A DNA stretch of 63,260 nt, filler included, from Reclinomonas americana ATCC 50394 (taxonomy: Eukaryota): assembly GCA_048213135.1 (NCBI GenBank). It is 10 parts of 6 records of this genome, joined end to end, with 100 filler letters (N's around TTAATTAATTAA, not from the genome) between each part and the next. Parts side by side here need not be neighbours in the genome. Positions count along the whole stretch, not along the records: positions 28,004 to 52,729 come from PS015585.1; 9 more parts are not named here. One strand, 5' to 3'. Positions 15,404-62,190 of the stretch are shown piece by piece (positions within the stretch are counted from its first letter, which is position 1; each line of letters opens with the position of its first letter). The notes under the pieces are model-generated. The model had not been told where the DNA came from and did not search any database. It worked only from the letters and a program-made list of their open reading frames with translations. Both the position numbers and the translations under genes were made by a program.

Positions 15404-16705
15404 TTGTGTGTGTCTTGGTTGTTGTTTCTCGCACACACGCGCGCGCTGCGTGATGCAAGAAACGAAGAGAGTGAGAGAACGAAGATTCGTTGATCCGAAC
15501 AGCAAGATGAAAAGGTGACAAGTCGTGATGGGAAGAGAGAAGGAGGAGTGGGAGAACGCGCAGAGAGGGTGGTGTCAGAGCACTGGGCAACCCTGGGCGC
15601 ATCGTCAACTGCGATTGTTCTCCATGACAAGCAATGCATGTCTCTTTGTTTCGATCTTTCTCTCATGGAGAGAACATGGATCAGGGGAAGGTGGTGCTGA
15701 GATGATGATGGACAACAGCTCCACGTCGAGTTACAACAGCGCACGTGGGCAGCTGCATCATGGCAGCATCACCTCGAGGAAGAGCCTCAGACAGACACAA
15801 TGAGAAGGTCACGATCTCGGCGATGCAGCTGAAAAACCACAACACTGATCGTCATCGAGACTGCATTCCAACCGCACCCGTTGAGATGGTGCCGATAAGA
15901 GGTGCAGGAGTATCCACAGACCCAACAAAGCAGCACTTCCTTGTGCTCGATCCACATCGAACCACCAAGAACACGAGTCATCTGCACAATCTCGTGATGG
16001 GTTACTCCCGTCCTCGCAGCTGTTGGTGGGCCATCATGCACCAACGATGTGCTGCTCTGCCGCAAACATGAACACAGAAGAAGCACGTGTCGTTGGTTAC
16101 CAATCTGGCTGGACTTGGTCAACAAGACAGCCATTCTCGTGTTTGTTGTTGATGAGAGTGAGCAACACGCACGAATACAAATGGATGCCCCGGGCGGCTG
16201 CACCCACAATACCATGATGGCCCCTTCCAACCATTTTTCATTCGTCTTGCTCCTCCACCTGCCACAACAACAACAACAGTCAGCTGCATGAAGACAAGAC
16301 TCAGATGCAGAGTCCATCCCGCACAACACAAGGCAACTTCTCAATTAAGCCCTCTTGGTGCACTGTGATTCTGCTTTTGTCTTCTTCTTTCCCGACAAGC
16401 TCCATCAATCTCACAAGCAACATGCATGTGTTGCCTGCCCAGTGAAACCTTTCTCCCTCTCTCACTCATCCGTCCGGCTGCCCCTCATTCCCACTCTCTC
16501 AGCACGCACCGATGCAGGTATGTCACAGTCCATCAACAGCAATGTCTTGCTCTCCACATCAAGCTCCTTCTCCATCACCACCACTCTGAATTTCTTGCTC
16601 TACATGTCCTCGTCCTCGTCTTCCTGTTCATCCTCCTCATCCTCGTCCTCCTCCTCCTCCTNNNNNNNNNNNNNNNNNNNNNNNNNNNNNNNNNNNNNNN
16701 NNNNN

Positions 16706-16717
16706 TTAATTAATTAA
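16706..16717. other. Artificial contig-concatenation linker TTAATTAATTAA (also at 18406, 20268, 27948, 52774, 56918, 59071, 60545, 62135)
   Basis: Identical 12-mer with stop codons in all six frames, each time embedded between N runs of ~44. Confidence 0.97.
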
Positions 16718-16764
16718 NNNNNNNNNNNNNNNNNNNNNNNNNNNNNNNNNNNNNNNNNNNNAAC

Positions 16765-17295: not shown

Positions 17296-18846
17296 AAGGG
17301 AGAGGAGTGGCAGGGGAAAGGAGGAGAGCGGAGTGGATCGTCAAACCAGACTGCCTTGGGTGCGGCTGGCAAACCATCGCAACGTCGAGCAAGTTGTCCC
17401 ACACCGATCACTCAATGGCCAGCACGCCTCACTCACACGTTCCCCGGCTCACTCGCTGGCACGACATCACCGATGCTGACGACGACGATNNNNNNNNNNN
17501 NNNNNNNNNNNNNNNNNNNNNNNNNNNNNNNNNNNNNNNNNNNNNNNNNNNNNNNNNNNNNNNNNNNNNNNNNNNNNNNNNNNNNNNNNNNNNNNNNNNN
17601 NNNNNNNNNNNNNNNNNNNNNNNNNNNNNNNNNNNNNNNNNNNNNNNNNNNNNNNNNNNNNNNNNNNNNNNNNNNNNNNNNNNNNNNNNNNNNNNNNNNN
17701 NNNNNNNNNNNNNNNNNNNNNNNNNNNNNNNNNNNNNNNNNNNNNNNNNNNNNNNNNNNNNNNNNNNNNNNNNNNNNNNNNNNNNNNNNNNNNNNNNNNN
17801 NNNNNNNNNNNNNNNNNNNNNNNNNNNNNNNNNNNNNNNNNNNNNNNNNNNNNNNNNNNNNNNNNNNNNNNNNNNNNCGCTCAAAGTGCGACAAGGCCGT
17901 TCGCAGGTGCGCCGACGGCCGTCCGACGTACGGCTCAAAGCCGTCGACTTGCTCGCCCTCGTCCAGTTCGTCGCCCCACTCCGACTCGTGCTCCACCAGG
18001 TCGGAGACCACCAGACGGACGTTTTGTCGAACGACTGCGGGTGGGAGAAAGAAGAGAGAAGAGGGAGATGCGTTATGCGTGTGAGAGCAGCGATCGCTAT
18101 GTCAATCGTTGTCACACGTGTGGGCGCGAAAATGCTTTGACAAACGCAACAGTCGACCAGCTCAACAACGCATCGACGGAGAACGGGTCCATGCGAAGCG
18201 TGTCGGCTTTGTAGTTGTGGTTGTGTAGTTGCAGTGGCGGTGGTGGAAGACGACGACGAGGAGAAGGAGGAGGAAGAAGCTGCGGTCTTTGAGATTGGAA
18301 GGCGCTCGGGTGGCGAGGAGAAGGAGTAGTCGTCGCCGTCTTCGTCGTCTGCATCGTCGTCNNNNNNNNNNNNNNNNNNNNNNNNNNNNNNNNNNNNNNN
18401 NNNNNTTAATTAATTAANNNNNNNNNNNNNNNNNNNNNNNNNNNNNNNNNNNNNNNNNNNNTCTTCTTCTTCTCTTCTTCTTCTTCTTCCTTCTCTCCTC
18501 CTCCTCCCCTCCCTCTCCTCCTCCTCCGTCCTCTTCCGTCTCCCTCCTCCCCCTCCTCCGCCTCCCCTCGCCTTCTCCTCCTTCCCCTCCTCCTCCTCCT
18601 CCGCCTCCTCCTCCGTATCCTCCTACTCCACCATCCTTCTCCTCCACTTTGTCCTCCTCTTTCTTCTTCTCCTCCTCCTCTTCTTCTGGCTCCCTCCTCC
18701 ACTTCCATCTTTCCCTTCGTTCTCTCTTTTCCTTCATTGTGCTGATGCCGAGATATTTGTTGAACGGCTGGCACTTGTTTGCACAGCTATTGCTAACCTT
18801 CCTCACTCTCTGTCTTCTGATTTCTCCCTTCACTTCTCTCTCCCAG

Positions 18847-20203: not shown

Positions 20204-20499
20204 GAGAACGAAGTAAGTAGTAGNNNNNNNNNNNNNNNNNNNNNNNNNNNNNNNNNNNNNNNNNNNNTTAATTAATTAANNNNNNNNNNNNNNNNNNNNN
20301 NNNNNNNNNNNNNNNNNNNNNNNTTTTGAGCGCGGGAAAAAATGAATGTGTCGATTGTCTAGAAATGGGTGGGGAGGTGAGAAGAGAGTGAGGAGATGGA
20401 GGTGGTGGAGAGAGGAGGTGCGAGAGGGAGAGACAAGAGCGGGAAGCAGGTCTTGGAGCTCACCGCCGCCGCTGGTGGAGTTGTCTACCTTCCCGCCAA

Positions 20500-20899: not shown

Positions 20900-23310
20900 C
20901 TGACGATGCGAGCCATTCACCGGCGACGGTTCGCGGCGTCGATCGTCTGTCTTGCGTCGCTTGGAATCCGGCTCGTCAGAGTCCTGCATGCGTGTGTGTG
21001 AGGGAACGAGAAAACTCCAAACCCGCAACGACCTGCTCCCTGCCTACCTTGCGGTCGGTGCGCACCACCGGTGGCGAGGATATGTGACTGTCGTCGGCTG
21101 GACGCGGTCGCTTCCGGGCGCCCTCTGGGATGGCGACCTCCTCTTCGATAGGCGGCTCGATGCGGCGCTTCAGGCGCGGCGAATCGAGCAGGAAGTCGAG
21201 GTCGGGATCGAAGGACGAGTTGGCGCCGGCCATGCGAGGTGATGATGCGGAGGTGGGTGGTACGGAGATGGCCGGGGTGGAGGCGGATGCTGAGAGGGGG
21301 GAAAGGGAATGGAGAGGGGAAGGGAGAGGAGAAGGAGGGCGAAGACTATGTCAGCAACTTGCGTCACTCACAGGTCTTCCGAGCAATTATCTCTCGTGCT
21401 CGTGTCATTCATACCTTCTCCCACAGAAATGTGCAACTCTCCTCTGCGCCAACTACAAGTGGTGCACACACGACAACACGGGCCAGGCGAAGGAGAATGC
21501 AAAAGATGCGCGGGCAAAAAGAAGGCAGTGCGCGCTCACTCGTAAATCTCTGGTCTTAAGTGTCTCCTTCCTCTGTTTTACAAACAGAACTTTGGCGATT
21601 CAACACGAGAAAGACACGAGTGAAATAGTGAGTGGCTAATGCACAAGACAAGAGTGTGCACATCTTGTCCTATTCGTCAATTTGCTTCCCCATGCCACCC
21701 CCTGCACGCAACATCCCCCTGAAGCCGGTGCCGCCGCCGCCGCTGGAGGTGGTGGCGCTGGCGGTTCTTCCGCCGCCGGCGTCGACGTAGTACGACGAGA
21801 AACAACAGCCGGCGGCGACGACGAGCGTGCTGCGGCAAGAATGAGATACACATCTCTCTTCCCCACATTCACCTCCACACATCCAGACCTGCTGCAGCTT
21901 GCGGTCGCAGCGACGAGCCATTCCGAGCTGTCGTCCGCGAGGAGGAGGACGTCGGTCGCGGCTCGCAGTCTCGACTCCTGTCGTCGCGCGGTGACCGCGA
22001 TGAGGCGGCAACGGATTCGAGCTTGAGCGAGTCGCGCTTCGGATCCCTGCCGTCGGTCCTGGGTGTTGAGGACCTTTCCCAGCCCGTCGACTTGCCGCCG
22101 GAATTCCTGTCGCTCCTGCTCGCGTCGCTGCTCTTCGAAGCCGAGCGCGCACTCTCTGCGACCTCCGACTTGTCCCATCCCGTGGTGGACGAGCGGGCAC
22201 TGCTGCTCTTCTCACCCTTGCTCGCACCCTCGCTCGAGTTGCTCACACGCACAGGAGCGGACGAGTCGGGTTTCGCCCGCCGATCGAAGCCGCCCTTGGT
22301 GTCTGCCTCCTTTGTCTCGCCCCTGCCCTTGCCTGCATCCTCCCGTCTCTCGCCGCCCTTGCCAGCATTGAGATGCGCACTGGCCTCCTCCCTCGTCTCA
22401 CCTCTTGTCGGCGGCCGATCACTGCTGGCCTTCGCACTGGCACTCTCTTTCGCCTCGCACTTGACCGCCTGCCGGTCGCTGCCGCCCTTGCCAGCATTGG
22501 GATGCGCACTGGCCTCCTCCCTCGTCTCACCTCTTGTCGGCGGTCGATCATTGGTGGCCTTCGCACTGGCACTCTCCTTTGCCTCACCCTTGACCGCCTG
22601 TCTGTCACCAACGCCCTTGCCAGCGTTGACACTCGCACTCGCCTCCTCCCTCCGATCGCTGCTGGCCTTCGCACTGGCACTCTCCTTTGCCTCACCCTTG
22701 ACCGCGTGCTGACGCTGCGGCTCGCTCTTGCTCGCCTCGGCCGGTGACTCTGACTTGCCAGCGGGGCGCGCGGCAGTCGTGGTTCGCCTTTCTGCGCTGT
22801 CCTTGACGTCTTTCGATGACGACGACCGTCCGTTACTTTCGCTGCCTTCTCGCACGCGAGGTGTTTCCGTGTCTTTCGCATCGCTGTGCGAGCTGCTATG
22901 GGAGGAGGGCCACGCAGAACGACAATCATCAGCGCCAGCTTGCGACGACGCGGCGTGCGTGCTCAGTCGATGACACACCTAGCGGCCATCGCCACACGCG
23001 ACGGCTGCGGTGGTGCTGGTGGTGGTGGTGGCAGCAGTGGCGGCGGCGCCGTCAGTGCTGGTGACGGTGGTGGAGACGACAGGTCCTCCAGTAACCGAGC
23101 CAGTGCTGGCGACGGCTCCAGCTTTTCGACGAGCAGGGAGACGGCCTCGCAGTGGAAGACTATGGCAACGGTGAGGGTCAGATGAGTGGAAACGGGAAAG
23201 GGAGATTGGCGTGCTCACCAGAAGGCTTGCGGTCCCGTGAGATGCCGAGGGAGTACAGGCAGGAGTTTTGGAGGAGGTGGTGCAGGCGACCGGCGGTGAT
23301 GTCGCTGACG
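20900..23310 (-). CDS. Hypothetical protein, Ser/Ala/Lys/Arg-rich and low-complexity, with internal ~40-aa repeats (partial)
   Basis: Long open frame 21869-22978 with GT-AG-bounded neighbouring exons; no recognisable domain; ends uncertain. Confidence 0.5.
22300..22710 (-). repeat. Coding tandem repeat, ~120 bp (AVKGEAKESASAKAxxDRPPTRGETREEASAHxNAGKGGxDRQ), about 3 copies
   Basis: Visible in the 21869..22978 translation and in the DNA (gccttcgcactggcactctc at ~22428, 22557 and 22666). Confidence 0.85.
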
Positions 23311-26922: not shown

Positions 26923-28003
26923 NNNNNNNNNNNNNNNNNNNNNNNNNNNNNNNNNNNNNNNNNNNNNNNNNNNNNNNNNNNNNNNNNNNNNNNNNNNNNN
27001 NNNNNNNNNNNNNNNNNNNNNNNNNNNNNNNNNNNNNNNNNNNNNNNNNNNNNNNNNNNNNNNNNNNNNNNNNNNNNNNNNNNNNNNNNNNNNNNNNNNN
27101 NNNNNNNNNNNNNNNNNNNNNNNNNNNNNNNNNNNNNNNNNNNNNNNNNNNNNNNNNNNNNNNNNNNNNNNNNNNNNNNNNNNNNNNNNNNNNNNNNNNN
27201 NNNNNNNNNNNNNNNNNNNNNNNNNNNNNNNNNNNNNNNNNNNNNNNNNNNNNNNNNNNNNNNNNNNNNNNNNNNNNNNNNNNNNNNNNNNNNNNNNNNN
27301 NNNNNNNNNNNNNNNNNNNNNNNNNNNNNNNNNNNNNNNNNNNNNNNNNNNNNNNNNNNNNNNNNNNNNNNNNNNNNNNNNNNNNNNNNNNNNNNNNNNN
27401 NNNNNNNNNNNNNNNNNNNNNNNNNNNNNNNNNNNNNNNNNNNNNNNNNNNNNNNNNNNNNNNNNNNNNNNNNNNNNNNNNNNNNNNNNNNNNNNNNNNN
27501 NNNNNNNNNNNNNNNNNNNNNNNNNNNNNNNNNNNNNNNNNNNNNNNNNNNNNNNNNNNNNNNNNNNNNNNNNNNNNNNNNNNNNNNNNNNNNNNNNNNN
27601 NNNNNNNNNNNNNNNNNNNNNNNNNNNNNNNNNNNNNNNNNNNNCCAGCGGTCGCGACGCGCACGGAGACGATCGGGAATCGGGCGGATGGCGGTGTTGT
27701 GCATGATGTATAGAATACACTAGTTCAAATGTGTCTAATCGGCGGATTAGGTTTCCTATGTGACGGCTGTCGGCCGTCGCTGTGCTGTTGCGGCTATCAA
27801 GAGAGAAAATATGGCGCTGCTGCCGTGCGTCAACGCGTGTGACGGTCCTGTTTCATGCAGCCTGGAGCGTTGGGGTTCTTCGTGTAGCAGCATGACCACT
27901 GTGNNNNNNNNNNNNNNNNNNNNNNNNNNNNNNNNNNNNNNNNNNNNTTAATTAATTAANNNNNNNNNNNNNNNNNNNNNNNNNNNNNNNNNNNNNNNNN
28001 NNN

Positions 28004-30773
28004 AGCAGCGCAGCGTAGAGTTCTGTGCAGGTGCGGAGGACAGTGAGTGGGGTGTGGATGCAGTGCGAGAAGAGGAGAGTGCTCACCAGTAAGCGGTACA
28101 GGGAGAGTTGCATGATTTGCTGCGCGACATCTCACCTCCTGCAGCACAGTGTCAGCACGAGAAGCATGCATGAACGAGAGTATGGCGTCAACCATCGACG
28201 AACCCACTGTGCGTGTTTGACATTCGAGGATTCGTGAAGAGAGAGAGAGAAGATCAACTGGTGAGTGAGCGGTGGGTGATATGACACTGCGGTAGTAAAT
28301 GTCACACTGACCTCCTACGAACCGCAAGAGGCATGTGAGTCACACGCATAAGCAGATGGAAACGGGAACAGCACACATCAACTCACTTCCTGTTTTCCGT
28401 AATCCGCAGGCACGAGCAAAAGCAAGTCGGTAAAGGTGAGTTAACGCACACAGAAACCACTCAACACTAAGGGTATAACACACGCACATCCTGCAACAAA
28501 CAAATCAGAGTGAGACACAACAGACAGCGAACTACAACTACCCACAACATGTGCGACTCACATCCTGCAGCGAAGAGGGGGAGCAAGAGTGAGTGAATTC
28601 TTCTGAGAAGCATCCGACAAGAGGGACGTGATTACGCACAAACTGGAGGTGGAGTAGTTGTCGAAGCGCAAGCGATGAAACACAAGTGAGCAAACACAGT
28701 CGACAGCAAATCAACATGAATGAATGAGCATAAAAGCCGCAACGTCCTGCGCAGATCAGATAGGGTTAGTGACACGCTGCAAAGAAGGAAAAGGCTGACG
28801 GATCGTAGTGAATCAACGCACCAGCTGCAGAACAGGATGATGACGCGGGGAGAGAGAAGAGAACACAGGTCAGTTGCTGAAAGGCAATTGAAAGCAAATG
28901 TCACAAACTGCGGCTCACCAACTGCACATCAAAAGACAAGTGAATAATGAGTGAGCAAAGTGATAAATAGGAAGCATAGTGCGGCAAGGGTGCTCACTCA
29001 CATACTGATTTGTAGCCGGTCGAGAACAAGAGCAAGGCACAGTGAGTGAACTGCAAACAAAAAGGAGGCAATTGCGCGGCAACACGGGCACTCACATACT
29101 GCAGGTGATAAACGAGACATGGTTAGTTCACTCTGCTATGAATGTATGAAACAAGGCGAGTCACAGACAGCTCACCTCCTGTTCCACCAAGTTCGCACGG
29201 GCACGACGGACACACGCAAATGAGCAACACAGGAAAAGCATCAAGGCGCAGCAGCAGCAAGATCACAAAAGCACAAACCCCCTGCGATGCATGGACAACT
29301 TGGTCAGCAACCAGAATAAGACAGCTCAAACAACTGCCACACACTCACCGGATGGAACCGGCACTCGCTGCACTCCGGTGACGAGACGCACATGTTGCAC
29401 TTGTTGCACTTCCACAACTGTTCGTGTTGTCGCCTGTGAGAACGCGCAGGAGACGATCTCCCTCATGTGCAACACACAAACCTTGCTCTTGACAGACTGG
29501 ACGCGTTCAATGGCCAATCCAAACTCGTCAAACGTCGTCTCCATGACCATCTGGTTATCATGGTTCGGTTGTGAAGCCAGCGGTCGTCGTCTCCTGCGCT
29601 GGCCAGTGAGCTGCTCCTCGAGAGCTGCCACCTTTCCGCACAGTTCCTCTTTTTCTTGCTGATGATTCTCGACCATCTGCATTGCACATGTCAGTCTTTG
29701 CATGCAACTGGCTCTTGTGGGATGAGGGCAGGAGATGGAGAGGCAGACCTTGCGCCGCTCCACCTCGGTCTCCGACAACTGTTTTCGCAGGTTGGCCACC
29801 TGTGTGCAGATGGCATCGTGATTAGCATACTGTTGACGAACGTGTGTCATGCGTGGATAAGCTAGCTGACCTGCTGCTGCAGCAAGCGCACTGTCGGACC
29901 CAGCGCGGCATACTCGCACTTGTGTTTGGCCATGTCGCATGCTCGGCCGGTCCATTCGCATCCCACATCGCTCATGGCGCAGCAAACTTGACGCAGCGAG
30001 CACTCAAGCACTGGCGACAAGCAGAGTCAGTGGGTCGTCGGCATGCACTTGTCGGCCAACACTTACACACGCACCGTGATGCCTGTCCATGTCCCTGTAC
30101 GCAATGTGGTCGGCTCCACAGCGATCGCACACGTAGTTGCACTCAAGTCGGTGCGTCTCCATGTACTCGCGCACTGTACCTGTCCATCGGCACGGTGCCG
30201 CACCGGTCAACACATCGTTTCGCCGCGGGCATCGCACCTCCAGATTGTAAAACTGGCGCAAGTTCACCGACGGTGGCGTCACCGCATTCAGCAGTGTGGT
30301 GCCTCCGCAGCCGCAAAAGTTCAACGGACTGTGCGGAGTCAAGTGGCCTGCCAAAGCACCAAGTTTAGCGGCAGTCACACACGCACACACACGCAGCCAA
30401 GAGGCAATATTCGACGGCACACACAACTCTGGCAGGCGTAGTGCTCGCCGCGCAAGCACAGCAAGAAGGGAGCCTCGGCCAGGTCCTGGCACACACCGCA
30501 GCGGTAGAGCGACGACGAGGCCTCGTGCAGCAGGTCGTCTTCCGTCAGCGGAGGCGGAGGAGCACCGATGACAGTACTGAGCGTGCCGGTGGTAGCCGGT
30601 GGTGCTGAAGAAGAAGACGAGGAGGAGGAGGAGGAGGAGGAAGAAGAAGATGTGGAGGTAGTTGACGCCACTGATGGCCTCTTTTGTGGGTGGACGTGGT
30701 GGTGGTGGTGTGCGTGAGGCGACGCGTGCCGGTGGTGGCACACTGACGCGTTCGAAAGTACTCCGGTCAACAT
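28004..30773 (-). CDS. TRAF-like protein: RING, TRAF-type zinc fingers, coiled coil, then a CxxC...CxFHPG zinc-finger-like domain partly encoded by single-codon exons; 3' end truncated by the contig end
   Basis: YRCGVCQDLAEAPFLLCLRGEHYACQSC (RING), NLEVRCPR...CRWTGTVREYMETHRLEC and VCCAMSDVGCEWTGRACDMAKH (TRAF zinc fingers), QVANLRKQLSETEVERRK|MVENHQQEKEELCGKVAALEEQL (coiled coil), exon 29349-29417 LWKCNKCNMCVSSPECSECRFHP, 14 microexons, then NSTLRC at 28004-28022. Start codon (30773) uncertain. Confidence 0.8.
28136..29281 (-). other. Array of 14 consecutive 3-nt phase-0 microexons (one codon each)
   Basis: Minus-strand YAG|NNN|GT units: 29279-81 GGG, 29176-78 GAG, 29096-98 TAT, 29002-04 TAT, 28919-21 TTG, 28822-24 CTG, 28744-46 GAC, 28640-42 TTT, 28562-64 GAT, 28488-90 GAT, 28387-89 GAA, 28312-14 GAG, 28204-06 TGG, 28136-38 GAG. 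Intervening introns are 65-105 nt with this genome's typical donors and CTSAC-like branch sites. Confidence 0.88.
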
Positions 30774-47137: not shown

Positions 47138-48546
47138 TTAGTCTTGCTGTGAGGCGGGAGGAGGGTTGCGTGAGACGAGTTGATGGCGAGTGGGACAAGC
47201 AAACATACAAACAAACCTTGGTGCACCATGGGTTGCGCTCCATCTGCAACCGCAACAAGAAGAGAGGATTAGGACGACGGTGTATTTGCAACTGCTGCTG
47301 CTGCTGCTGCTACCAACACATACACGCACCTGTGCTTGTTCAGTCTCGGGTGTCCAGTCCTGCGAAAAGAGAACAGTGAGGAAACACAGTCGACTTTGGC
47401 GCACAACCCACTGCCACAGCGCACATTGACAATGTTGAACATCTCGCGCACTTGCTCCGGTGTCTTGCCCTGTGTGGAAACGAGTGAGACGACGAGGAGT
47501 TGCACAAAATTCACTCGGAAAAACACGCACCTTGATCGTGCTGGCCACTGCGCAATGTCGGCGCGGCAAGGGCAGTTAGCATTCCGACGCAGGGTGCTCA
47601 CACATACACATACACAGAGTACAAACCCTTGGCGCACGCCAGCTCCAGCAACTCTCGAATGTCCATGTAGTTGGCGGCCTTTTTTATAGTCAGCATCACA
47701 CCTTGGCAGTGGCAAGGAAACAGGCGAGGGCACACGCACCAAAATCAAGTTGAACAACTCCTCCGTCTCCAGTGCCACAAAGTCACCTGCGTGCGCCTGC
47801 AGTTAAGCGCGAGGACGAAAGCAGGCATGTTCCTCTCATTATCGTACACAACGATCAAACGGCGAGACAAGGTCCTCAAAGCGACCCTTCAGCGGCTTCT
47901 CAATCTCCAGCGGCTGCTGGTCGTAGTGGTGCCTCAGCCACTCCACCACTTTCCGCAGCACGTCGGCCTCCACCATCGGCAGCGGGCACGCAGCACCATC
48001 CTCCTCAGTGTCTATACACAAAAACAATAACTACTAGTGAGACACATAGCGTGTGGCACTGCGTGTGTGCGTGGGAGGGGCGACTGACCCTCCGTCATGG
48101 TCTTGCACAGCACGCTCTTCTCAATCACCGGTCTCGGAACCTGTGCGCACGTGTGTGTGGTGAGTGCGGGAAAGCGAGATGTCCATCGCACAAACACTCT
48201 CTTCTGCTCTACACAAGCACACGCGCGCTCAAAGCGGGGTCGCGGAGAACAAGACACACATGGTGCGTGCGCCCAAACATGACACACGCATTCAGCAAAA
48301 ACGTCCCGAGCGCGGATTCTCAACAGCAAACTCTCTCTTGGTCTCACTCCCGCCCTCACTCTCTCATTCACACACTCGTACACACACACACAGAGGTACC
48401 GAGTGTGCGCGGGAGAGACAGACACACACACACACAGACAAGAGTGCGTGTTGAGTGGTTATGCTGACCTCAATGCACGTTCCGTCCTTGGCGATCAAGT
48501 TGACCTTGGGCGCAGTGTCGAGGCGGTTTCCTGATGCTGATGCCAT
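47138..48546 (-). CDS. SKP1: Skp1-family protein
   Basis: Spliced: KVNLIAKDGTCIE|V...CPLPMVEADVLRKVVEWLRHH...LFNLIL|AANYMDIRELLELACAK|VASTIK|GKTPEQVREMFNIVN|DWTPETEQAQ|MERNPWCTK|QD*. Confidence 0.92.
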
Positions 48547-50849: not shown

Positions 50850-52729
50850 TTAACTTAAGTGCAACCGATAAATTCCTGTATCTGCAACAGCGACGATTTT
50901 GGTGCCGTCGCTGTTGCAGATCACCGACAACCAAGTGCGACTGATATCGCGAGCAGTCCACGTCGCGCCAGAATCAGTGGAGACGTATATCGGAAACACG
51001 CCCCCAACAGCCACCAGAGTGGTTCCGTCACTACTGGAGGCTACTGATCGCCACTGACGGCTGGATTCGTGTTGCGTCCAATTCACACCCGAGTCAACAG
51101 AGATGAAAATCCGAACACCAGAAGCCACAGCTACCAGCTTCGTACCGTCACTGCTGGAAGCCACACCCCACCAGCTACGAATGCTCTCACGACTCGTCCA
51201 CGTGCCGCCAGAGTTAGCGGATGTGAGGAGCTGCGAAATATTCGGCGCGGCCGCCAACTTGGTACCGTCACTGTTGGAGGCTACTGCACGATACTGGCGA
51301 GATGGGCCCGCAACCCAGGTCTCACCAGAGTCAGCAGAGACGTAAATCGCACCGTTGGTCAAGGCAGCCACCAGCTTCGTACCGTCGCTGTTGGAGGCCA
51401 CAGCAACCCATGCGCGACTGGACTCGCGAGCCGTCCACGTCAAGCCAGAGTCCGCTGAGGTGTAAATCAGGCCGTTATTCACCACAGCCACTAGCTTGGT
51501 GCCGTCACTGCTGGAGGCTACAGATTTCCAGTCGCGGTGGGAATCACGAGGCGTCCACATCGCGCCAAAGTCAGTAGAGATGTAAAGCTGAGTACTCCTT
51601 CCAGCAGCCAACAGCTTGGAACCGTCACCGCTGGAAGCCACTGAAAGCCATACAACAGTACTATTTGCACGCAAGCCAGCGGTCGACGCTGACCACGTTG
51701 CACCAGCGTCGGTAGAGGTGTAAACCTGACCAGGGCTAACCGCGGCCACAAGTATGGTGCCGTCACTGGAGGAAGCCACGGAAGCCCAGGCGCGAGCGGT
51801 CTCCTGAGCCGTCCACGTCGCGCCCGAGTCAGTGGAGGTGTAGATCTGCCCTACATTCGCCACAGCAACCAGCTTGGTGCCGTCATCACTGGAGGCCACT
51901 CCACTCCACTGGCGACTGGAATCGCGAGCCGTCCACGACACACCAGAGTCAGCAGAGGTGTAGATATTGCCATTATTCGCTACAGCCACCAGATTGACAC
52001 CGTCACTGCTGGAGGCTACAGATTTCCAGTCGCGAGCTGAATCACGAGCCGTCCACGTCAAGCCAGAGTCCATGGAGGTGTACATGGAACCATTGCTCAC
52101 CACAGCCACCAGGTTGGTGCCGTCACTGCTGGAGGCCACCGAAGTCCAGGCGCGATTAGAATCATGCGCGGTCCAAGTGACGCCAGAGTCGGCAGAGGTG
52201 TAGATCTTGTCGCTAGTCGCAGCGGCCACCAGCTTGGTGCCGTCACTGCTGGAGGCCACTGCGCTCCAGCTGCGATTGGCATCCGTAGCTCGAGCAATCC
52301 ACGTTACGCCAGAGTCAGCAGAGGTGTAAATCCGGCCATTTTGCACAGCAGCCACCAGCTTGGTGCCGTCACTGCTAGAGGCCACTGCGAACCAGTTGCG
52401 ATTGGAATCGCGAGCCGTCCACATCGCACCCGAGTCAGTGGAGGTGTAAATCCTCCCGCCGAGTTCCGCAACCACGAGCATGGTGCCGTCACTGTTTGAG
52501 GCCACAGAGTGCCATGTGCCAACAAATGTAAGTGTTGGAACAGCACTGAGGGTTGAGCACGTGGAACCTGCCCGCGACAAGGTGAATCGGTCAACACTTA
52601 CACACACCAACACACACCAAAACTAAAAAAGACCAACAGATATGAGAGGCCAGCTACTCACCACTCCATGAGAATGCACAGCTGCAAGAGCCATCAGTGG
52701 CGCATGTTCCGTGTCCAGAGCACGTAGTG
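50850..52729 (-). CDS. EGF-like domain followed by 14 BNR/Asp-box repeats (likely two 7-bladed beta-propellers); 5' truncated
   Basis: Exon 52662-52729 TTCSGHGTCATDGSCSCAFSWS joins in phase 1 to exon 50850-52567 (G|STCS...), which has 14 copies of WxxVASSSDGTKLVAxxxxGxIYTSxDSGxTW. Confidence 0.9.
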
Positions 52730-52829
52730 NNNNNNNNNNNNNNNNNNNNNNNNNNNNNNNNNNNNNNNNNNNNTTAATTAATTAANNNNNNNNNNNNNNN
52801 NNNNNNNNNNNNNNNNNNNNNNNNNNNNN

Positions 52830-56745: not shown

Positions 56746-56973
56746 CGCTGTGCCTCCTTGCCTCCTCTTTTTTTCTTTCTCTCTTTTGTGTGGGCGGCTG
56801 GCCAAGGCCAGATGGGCGCGCGCGAAGAAAATTGTGAACTCTGATTCCACTGTCCAATCCGGCCGATGGATGTNNNNNNNNNNNNNNNNNNNNNNNNNNN
56901 NNNNNNNNNNNNNNNNNTTAATTAATTAANNNNNNNNNNNNNNNNNNNNNNNNNNNNNNNNNNNNNNNNNNNN

Positions 56974-58920: not shown

Positions 58921-59126
58921 GAGAGGAAGAAGAGAGACACACACACACACACACATTCACGACAACAGCGTGAGGAGTCTGCTGTCACCTCTTTCGTTTG
59001 CACTGCCTCTCGACGGACCACGGCGANNNNNNNNNNNNNNNNNNNNNNNNNNNNNNNNNNNNNNNNNNNNTTAATTAATTAANNNNNNNNNNNNNNNNNN
59101 NNNNNNNNNNNNNNNNNNNNNNNNNN

Positions 59127-60500: not shown

Positions 60501-60865
60501 NNNNNNNNNNNNNNNNNNNNNNNNNNNNNNNNNNNNNNNNNNNNTTAATTAATTAANNNNNNNNNNNNNNNNNNNNNNNNNNNNNNNNNNNNNNNNNNNN
60601 GAAGAGAGGGAATGAGAGAAGATTAAGAAGAAGAGAGAGAGAGAAGATCAAGAAGAAGAAGAAGAGAGAGAGAGCATGCATGTGCAAGCGCAATTTGGTA
60701 CGCGAGACAGTGATTGCGCATTCTCACTTGCATGTGTGCACTTCCAAGAGGTGCATGCATGCAGAGGAGGTGCAGAGCTTAGGCAGAGTTGGCACAGAAT
60801 TGTCTGTGTGGTTTTGATTGACTGCGAGTGAGTTATGTTTATCTGATGCATCTCTTGTTCATCAG

Positions 60866-62090: not shown

Positions 62091-62190
62091 NNNNNNNNNN
62101 NNNNNNNNNNNNNNNNNNNNNNNNNNNNNNNNNNTTAATTAATTAANNNNNNNNNNNNNNNNNNNNNNNNNNNNNNNNNNNNNNNNNNNN

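Follow-up and report, generated by a model that had tools for sequence, protein, structure and literature searches.

A putative array of one-codon exons in a RING/TRAF zinc-finger gene of Reclinomonas americana

Can part of a protein be encoded one amino acid per exon, with an intron on either side of every codon? This question is raised by a gene of Reclinomonas americana ATCC 50394 (assembly GCA_048213135.1), the predicted product of which combines RING and TRAF-type zinc fingers with a coiled coil and a Cys-rich C-terminus. The stretch of DNA analysed here, called the window below, comprises 63,260 nt in 10 parts of 6 records; the parts are joined by 100-nt filler and those standing side by side need not be neighbours in the genome. 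Positions are counted along the window, of which 28,004-52,729 come from PS015585.1. An earlier note, made from this sequence, had described 14 units of the form YAG-NNN-GT between two coding exons of the gene and read them as consecutive single-codon exons. We consider it moderately probable that the gene does carry 14 or more one-codon exons in a row, set among 15 unremarkable short introns of the U2-type GT-AG class, and that these codons would be joined into its mRNA. Such an array is a new extreme of a known kind and not a new kind of gene structure.

The 14 units occur on the minus strand at the places where they had been described (the numbers used in the earlier note are the last base of each codon), with the codons and donor hexamers listed there. 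Read along that strand, the sequence from 29348 to 28023 is tiled without remainder by 15 GT...YAG units, with exactly 3 nt between neighbours. The intron chain (28023..29348) thus consists of 15 introns, 1284 nt in total, interrupted by 14 three-base exons. In order, the introns measure 67, 100, 77, 91, 80, 94, 75, 101, 75, 71, 98, 72, 105, 65 and 113 nt: those between micro-exons fall within 65-105 nt, the range already reported for them, the leading intron has 67 nt and the trailing one 113 nt.

From 5' to 3', the predicted micro-exons begin with GGG (Gly; 29279..29281), which is preceded by the acceptor cag and followed by the donor GTTTGT. Micro-exon 2 is GAG (Glu; 29176..29178; donor GTGAGC), and micro-exons 3 and 4 are both TAT (Tyr), at 29096..29098 and 29002..29004, each followed by GTGAGT. 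Two leucine codons come next, TTG at 28919..28921 (GTGAGC) and CTG at 28822..28824 (GTGCGT). Micro-exon 7, GAC (Asp; 28744..28746), has the donor GTTGCG, a hexamer identical to that of lipin intron 1 in the same window, and micro-exon 8 is TTT (Phe; 28640..28642; GTGCGT). The codon GAT (Asp) then appears twice, as micro-exon 9 at 28562..28564 with GTGAGT and as micro-exon 10 at 28488..28490 with GTGCGT, followed by micro-exon 11, GAA (Glu; 28387..28389; GTGAGT). Micro-exon 12 is GAG (Glu; 28312..28314), with acceptor tag and donor GTCAGT; micro-exon 13, TGG (Trp; 28204..28206; GTTCGT), and micro-exon 14, GAG (Glu; 28136..28138; GTGAGA), complete the series.

Each of the 14 is exactly 3 nt long, has an intron on both sides and lies in frame, and the array is free of stop codons (0/14), as had been claimed. 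Both codons that start with TA are TAT and not TAG, although TAG would fit the donor better. The GAG of micro-exons 2, 12 and 14 sets an AG right before the donor GT, and between 28776 and 29496 the pattern YAG-NNN-GT has further matches outside the chain, at 29496, 29367, 28907 and 28776. Among the 14 codons, 8 begin with G and 5 with T, 9 have A in the middle, and 7 end in G and 5 in T. These letters track the exonic preferences of splice sites, so the make-up of the peptide is possibly dictated by splicing: the acidic and aromatic series may reflect splicing signals and not the dissection of an older peptide by introns.

How far is this arrangement from what chance would produce? We scanned both strands of the window for chains of one-codon exons, taking as a loose candidate intron any sequence with a GTNN[GC]N donor, a length of 50-130 nt, a CTNAY within the last 60 nt and a YAG end. 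In the 1416-nt region around the array there are 17 YAG-NNN-GT sites, against 0-11, with a mode of 3, in 2000 dinucleotide-preserving shuffles. In the comparison with shuffled sequence that the earlier note had proposed, made here on the window, the longest chain of candidate introns joined by 3 nt has 15 members in the real sequence, and the shuffles reach 1 (1572 times), 2 (413 times) or at most 3 (15 times). Elsewhere the longest such chain is 2, both on the entire plus strand and on the remaining minus strand. Under a strict donor pattern, 11 of the 24 three-base matches of the window, both strands together, fall inside the array, and when spacings of 0-15 nt are counted the excess is found solely at 3 nt on the minus strand. 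If exons of 1-30 nt are allowed, the scan of the window returns the array, a chain in the Skp1 gene, three short unverified chains and nothing more. Chance fails to account for the array; the observation is confirmed, and it is far from chance.

The introns themselves were compared with 19 control introns of the window (Skp1, 8; lipin, 3; a Rab5-like gene, 5; the host gene itself, 3). These were placed by homology or reading frame, the placement of their exons resting partly on general knowledge of the protein families, with Pfam backing lipin, Ras and Skp1. All 15 array introns start with GT and end with YAG, and 11 of the 15 donor hexamers recur among the controls, in agreement with the earlier statement that the donors are of the types used in conserved genes of the window; the shared types include GTGCGT, GTTTGT, GTCAGT, GTGAGT and the unusual GTTGCG of lipin intron 1. 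Branch-like sites, attributed before to most introns of the array, are represented by a CTNAY motif in every one (15/15, against 15/19 controls). Lengths are similar, at 65-113 nt with a median of 80 nt in the array and 61-180 nt with a median of 70 nt in the controls, the array introns being slightly longer (Mann-Whitney p=0.017).

The acceptors carry a further signal. An AG-free tail of at least 30 nt precedes 13 of 15 array acceptors and 11 of 19 control acceptors, and within the region itself such a stretch is found before 13/15 acceptor AGs but only 4/35 other AGs (Fisher p=6e-7). The region contains 50 AGs in total where its base composition predicts 48; the signal is therefore one of placement, not of depletion. 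The donors, in turn, are stronger than is usual here, with GTGAG in 8/15 array introns and 1/19 controls (Fisher p=0.004). Strong flanking splice sites are to be expected of tiny exons. In their sequence features, the array introns look like genuine U2-type GT-AG introns of this genome. The interpretation given in the earlier note is partly supported: those of its predictions that can be checked on sequence alone all hold.

The strongest case for use of these sites comes from what the introns have retained and what they have lost. The mean local alignment score of intron bodies is 15.1 within the array, 14.2 between array and controls and 13.7 among the controls; either the bodies share no origin, or they have become as different as introns that do not. 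The splice dinucleotides (30/30), the branch-like motifs (15/15) and the exact spacings (14/14), by contrast, are all intact. This preservation of signals and spacings beside dissimilar bodies is our main reason for holding that the splice sites are probably under selection, that is, used. The constancy of 3 nt, rather than 1, 2, 4 or 5, suggests in addition that the reading frame matters.

The intron lengths alternate between short (S) and long (L) in the order S L S L S L S L S S L S L S L, with a lag-1 autocorrelation of -0.71 (permutation p=0.002). In 13 of 14 cases an adjacent pair of introns, together with two codons, spans 173-184 nt. The array thus has a period of about 178 nt containing two codons, and the short and long lengths within these units are negatively correlated (r=-0.77, p=0.04). 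When seven such units are aligned, only the splice signals and a CTCAC-like block are retained. Intron similarity exceeds z=3 in 3 of 21 long-long pairs and in 0 of 28 short-short pairs. An ancient repeat unit of two introns may have left this alternation behind; it might equally reflect a splicing order in two waves or a spacing set by chromatin.

Is the array placed where coding sequence would be expected? It sits in the Cys-rich C-terminal part of the gene, between coding exons on one strand, and is frame-neutral between them. Upstream lies a 69-nt Cys-rich exon (29349..29417) that ends in phase 0 with ...CRFHP, as described before, and is followed by the donor GTGAGT; downstream, after the acceptor cacag, an exon starts with NSTLRC at 28022 (28005..28022), again as described, and runs for at least 18-19 nt with no GT inside until it ends at a joining block. 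This block (27904-28003; 44 N, 12 letters, 44 N) separates it from the last coding stretch of the gene (27830..27901, minus strand), which reads (Q)WSCC...GC...H and has its stop codon at 27830-27832. The sequence beyond the block begins with cacag, the last exon may start at TGG (27898), and further exons are possible between. The downstream exon being incomplete, the array may itself extend into the block.

The last exon matches the BTK motif (PF00779) from position 11 to position 27 of the 30 in the profile (E=3e-5; score 24.3 bits, curated cut-off 24); the first ten positions, which hold the His, are left unplaced because of the array and the joining block. Since it is the second half of the motif that is matched, translation is expected to continue across the array. 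The earlier note had proposed that the first micro-exon completes a CxFHPG motif. This micro-exon would indeed supply a Gly after FHP, which fits the HPG motif of CHORD domains; the support that it lends is weak and no more than suggestive. In BTK and CHORD motifs, about 8-10 residues lie between HP(G) and W-x-CC. The insert encoded by the array would form a long loop, or else a linker joining zinc-binding parts that are separate and do not make up one motif; in either case it is probably a tolerant stretch.

What could be the mechanism by which such exons are spliced? A precedent in the window is the Skp1 gene (minus strand, about 47138-48545), which has at least 10 exons, including consecutive C-terminal exons of 17, 45, 30 and 27 nt with introns of 61-86 nt between them, and a last coding exon of 6 coding bases followed by the stop. 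Tiny exons appear to be routine in this genome, and the small exons of Skp1 raise the prior for pairing of sites across introns and for tolerance of very short exons. Each array intron would accordingly be recognised across itself (intron definition), as the 17-45-nt exons of Skp1 suggest. A donor is read from 3 nt upstream to 6 nt downstream and an acceptor up to the first exon base, so that the two footprints would overlap at a 3-nt exon. A donor and an acceptor 3 nt apart would then not be occupied together, and neighbouring introns would have to be removed in turn, in a manner resembling recursive splicing. After each removal the one-codon exon would be fused to a longer neighbour, placing the next site in an ordinary context, and one codon would stay behind. 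The mRNA would in this way gain 14 residues: 4 Glu, 3 Asp, 2 Tyr, 2 Leu, 1 Gly, 1 Phe and 1 Trp.

We hypothesize that the array arose by repeated, frame-neutral duplication of a codon-plus-intron module, an origin to which the two-intron period of about 178 nt points, and that the copies then diverged for a long time under selection for splice sites and three-base spacing. Two other origins were considered. Recent tandem duplication was dropped: Tandem Repeats Finder reports no repeat within the array (its single match, 29388-29411 with a period of 9, lies inside the upstream exon), and the similarity among the introns is near that of unrelated introns. Insertion of introns with a 3-bp target duplication was likewise set aside, as neighbouring codons are not significantly alike (19/39 bases, p=0.14; 2 identical pairs, p=0.14; permutation).

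Would an explanation without splicing do as well? That the array reflects chance or base composition, a degenerate minisatellite with a conserved core of some different function, or a gene hosting small RNAs in its introns is in our estimate very improbable. The base composition of the strand, poor in A (0.16) and rich in T (0.34), alone lengthens AG-free stretches, but in this region AG-free tails go specifically with acceptor AGs, none of the 2000 dinucleotide shuffles gave a chain longer than 3, and the conserved core consists of exactly the donor, acceptor and branch signals of this genome. A small-RNA host gene would not require an exact three-base spacing, and a search of both strands of 27650-29900 against Rfam (E up to 1) gave no RNA family, which disfavours the introns as small-RNA hosts. 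A relic, or neutral by-product, we hold to be quite unlikely: the array would consist of old duplicated splice-junction modules inside one or a few larger introns, with internal sites that are ignored or act as transient stepping stones. The alternating lengths (-0.71, p=0.002) and the pair sums of 173-184 nt in 13/14 cases hint at an old two-intron unit, as such a history would have it; similarity above z=3 in 3/21 long-long against 0/28 short-short pairs and the apparent removal of introns of about 330 and 695 nt in neighbouring genes point the same way. Unused dinucleotides (30), branch-like motifs (15), AG-free tails and spacings (14) should, however, have decayed together with the intron bodies, and a rule of nearest-site pairing would use the internal sites regardless.

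Real sites may also be used only partly or variably. In this case, which we find rather unlikely, in-frame isoforms with 0-14 extra residues would be made, the main product perhaps containing only a few of them, for example the first Gly. Since every exon is 3 nt, any combination stays in frame, and from what is generally known of U1 and U2AF binding the overlapping footprints of the sites flanking a 3-nt exon should favour skipping; the short linker that would result is also closer to the spacing of BTK and CHORD motifs. Where short introns are recognised one by one, on the other hand, splice sites generally pair with their nearest partners and organisms of this type seldom skip exons; the strong donors (GTGAG in 8/15 against 1/19) look like selection for efficient use of the sites. 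A bolder proposal is a codon cassette, in which duplicated modules would have their codons kept or skipped independently, yielding a graded set of in-frame linkers of 0-14 residues in a zinc-binding domain. Since adjacent introns could not be spliced simultaneously, the alternating lengths would impose two waves, the non-adjacent short introns being removed before the long ones; we regard it as decidedly doubtful. The array of one-codon exons joined into the mRNA remains our preferred reading, and several points weigh against it. The peptide is without independent sign of selection, and 14 codons would be free of stops by chance about half the time. Micro-exons 2, 12 and 14 could be skipped through the AG of their GAG, a point that equally favours partial use. 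From HP(G) to W-x-CC there are at least 19 residues here, plus whatever falls in the joining block, against the usual 8-10, and the block conceals how the structure ends on its 3' side. HMMER revealed no homologue that extends over the C-terminus, nor did word-indexed protein searches with the 65-aa exon, the TRAF exon of 85 aa and this TRAF exon aligned with its one relative, P0003. Finally, long introns appear to be tolerated nearby (lipin, 695 nt; Skp1, about 330 nt), so there would be no need to subdivide a spacer.

How does the array relate to known systems? The closest described kind are the micro-exon genes (MEGs) of schistosomes, the transcripts of which are alternatively spliced in frame. 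The comparisons that follow draw on parts of the sources cited. MEGs have 10-20 very short, mostly symmetric exons per gene, which are hard for automatic annotation; for exon size the text of the source states a minimum of 6 bp and its abstract 3-81 bp, most exons being of 15 bp, the introns range from 100 to about 5000 bp and the products are secreted (PMC10526429). The array shares with them a run of very short symmetric exons in one gene. As MEGs are described in those parts of the source, it departs from them in that all its exons are 3 nt and its introns 65-113 nt, in its RING/TRAF zinc-finger host, and in making up only 42 nt of coding sequence in a gene with other exons of 51-350 nt. 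The domains of the host suggest a product that is probably a cytosolic RING/TRAF protein, and a sequence relationship between array and MEGs is not expected.

Recursive splicing, described for Drosophila Ubx and for long introns, offers a second comparison: an acceptor is immediately followed by a donor, and the intron is removed stepwise (bioRxiv 10.1101/006163; PMC8605326). The layout of acceptor next to donor is alike, as is the ordered, one-at-a-time removal that we infer for the array. At ratchet points, as portrayed in the portions of these sources used here, 0 nt separate AG from GT and nothing is left in the mRNA; in the array the predicted acceptor AG and donor GT lie 3 nt apart in 14/14 units, and these 3 nt would be kept. 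Ratchet points also serve very long introns, whereas the steps of the array are 65-113 nt. Isolated micro-exons of 1-3 nt form a third group. Exons of 1 nt followed by conserved GTRAGT donors occur in the plant genes APC11 and VPS55, and the rice example includes exons of 5 and 12 nt (PMC8831610); in RPS24 a 3-bp micro-exon is accompanied by others of 18 and 22 bp (PMC12207440). Strong flanking splice sites and routine omission from annotation are common to these and to the array. In the sections of these papers drawn on, such micro-exons are single or stand at most two or three together, of mixed size, and the array has 14 in a row, all 3 nt. Within the window, the Skp1 chain shares with the array the same strand signals, intron types and intron sizes; the small Skp1 exons, unlike those of the array, encode a conserved protein and are 6 to 15 times longer than one codon. 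The earlier note had known of no run of 14 adjacent one-codon exons, and a literature search, with most subscription journals outside its reach, agrees, having found no one-codon exons side by side in a run and nothing as intron-dense.

If spliced as predicted, the array would place 15 introns across 42 coding bases, roughly one intron per codon. It would offer a test case for the way in which the spliceosome handles a donor and an acceptor sharing a footprint, and for a forced order of intron removal, and duplication of a codon together with an intron would be a frame-neutral route by which introns and protein loops grow together. Should the codon cassette hold, it would be the densest known packing of introns, one per codon, and a new way of tuning protein loops through splicing. 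Gene finders and read aligners would call the array intron or intergenic sequence, and the predicted protein would end too early; Skp1 here already has an exon of 17 nt, and in comparable genomes coding sequence is probably being overlooked systematically by standard annotation.

The remainder of the host gene, all on the minus strand, can be outlined as follows. The first coding exon (30421..30773), with a candidate ATG at 30773, would encode a low-complexity N-terminus and a RING finger (weak Pfam match to Sina_RING, E=0.0023, below the curated cut-off); its 3' end is approximate, with three GT sites at 30419-30424. A TRAF-type zinc-finger exon with approximate boundaries follows at 30076..30347 (weak match to TRAF2_zf, E=0.033, below the cut-off), and then a second Cys/His-rich exon (29871..30010) whose 5' boundary and phase are ambiguous and whose sequence is also present in P0003. 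A coiled-coil-like exon of 51 nt (29749..29799) and an exon of 195 nt (29482..29676), both in phase 0-0, lead to the 69-nt exon before the array. All three exons of 29349-29799 (51, 195 and 69 nt) are symmetric in phase 0, making the C-terminal half of the gene a series of frame-neutral modules. HMMER with the 85-aa TRAF exon gave 6 matches, among which only P0003 was judged a convincing relative: a protein of 195 aa, alone in its cluster and from a 1120-nt contig, it has 37% identity to the TRAF exon and stops before the C-terminal domain. Metagenome scans yielded no related locus, sequence searches of the PDB with the TRAF exon and the two exons of 23 aa nothing useful, and the window no paralogous copy in which spacings could be compared.

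Of the Skp1 exons, Pfam matched only that of 45 nt, and the others were placed by visible splice sites and the known Skp1 sequence. Intron 4 of this gene ends in AAG, not YAG, and another of its introns measures about 330 nt. The long lipin intron (43155-43849, minus strand) has 695 nt, including 20 N, and is CT-rich and of low complexity; the other lipin introns examined have 64-65 nt. It holds a single cag|TTT|gtccgt unit, at 43581. The idea that the array chops up a spacer because the spliceosome cannot remove long introns is weakened by this intron, the removal of which is judged from the usual spacing in lipin, and by the Skp1 intron of about 330 nt.

Further observations concern the window as a whole. 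Nine 100-nt linker-like blocks lie at 16662-16761, 18362-18461, 20224-20323, 27904-28003, 52730-52829, 56874-56973, 59027-59126, 60501-60600 and 62091-62190. Each consists of 44 N, 12 letters and 44 N, and they look like contig joiners with stops in every frame, the letters having been inspected at 27948-27959. The three unverified chains of small exons from the loose scan lie at 39393-39870 (plus strand; 29, 12 and 28 nt), 39944-40438 (minus strand; 13, 22 and 15 nt) and 22896-23218 (minus strand; 17 and 13 nt). A Pfam search returned no family for the 90 long open frames taken from the first half of the window, and lipin, Ras/Rab, Skp1, PAS, EF-hand and BNR for the 83 frames from the second. 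The neighbours so identified include the Rab5-like GTPase at 35650-37990 (plus strand; Ras family, E=1e-14), an EF-hand frame at 39140-39658 (plus strand), a PAS-domain frame at 40758-41417 (minus strand) and a 590-aa open frame with BNR/Asp-box repeats at 50853-52622 (minus strand).

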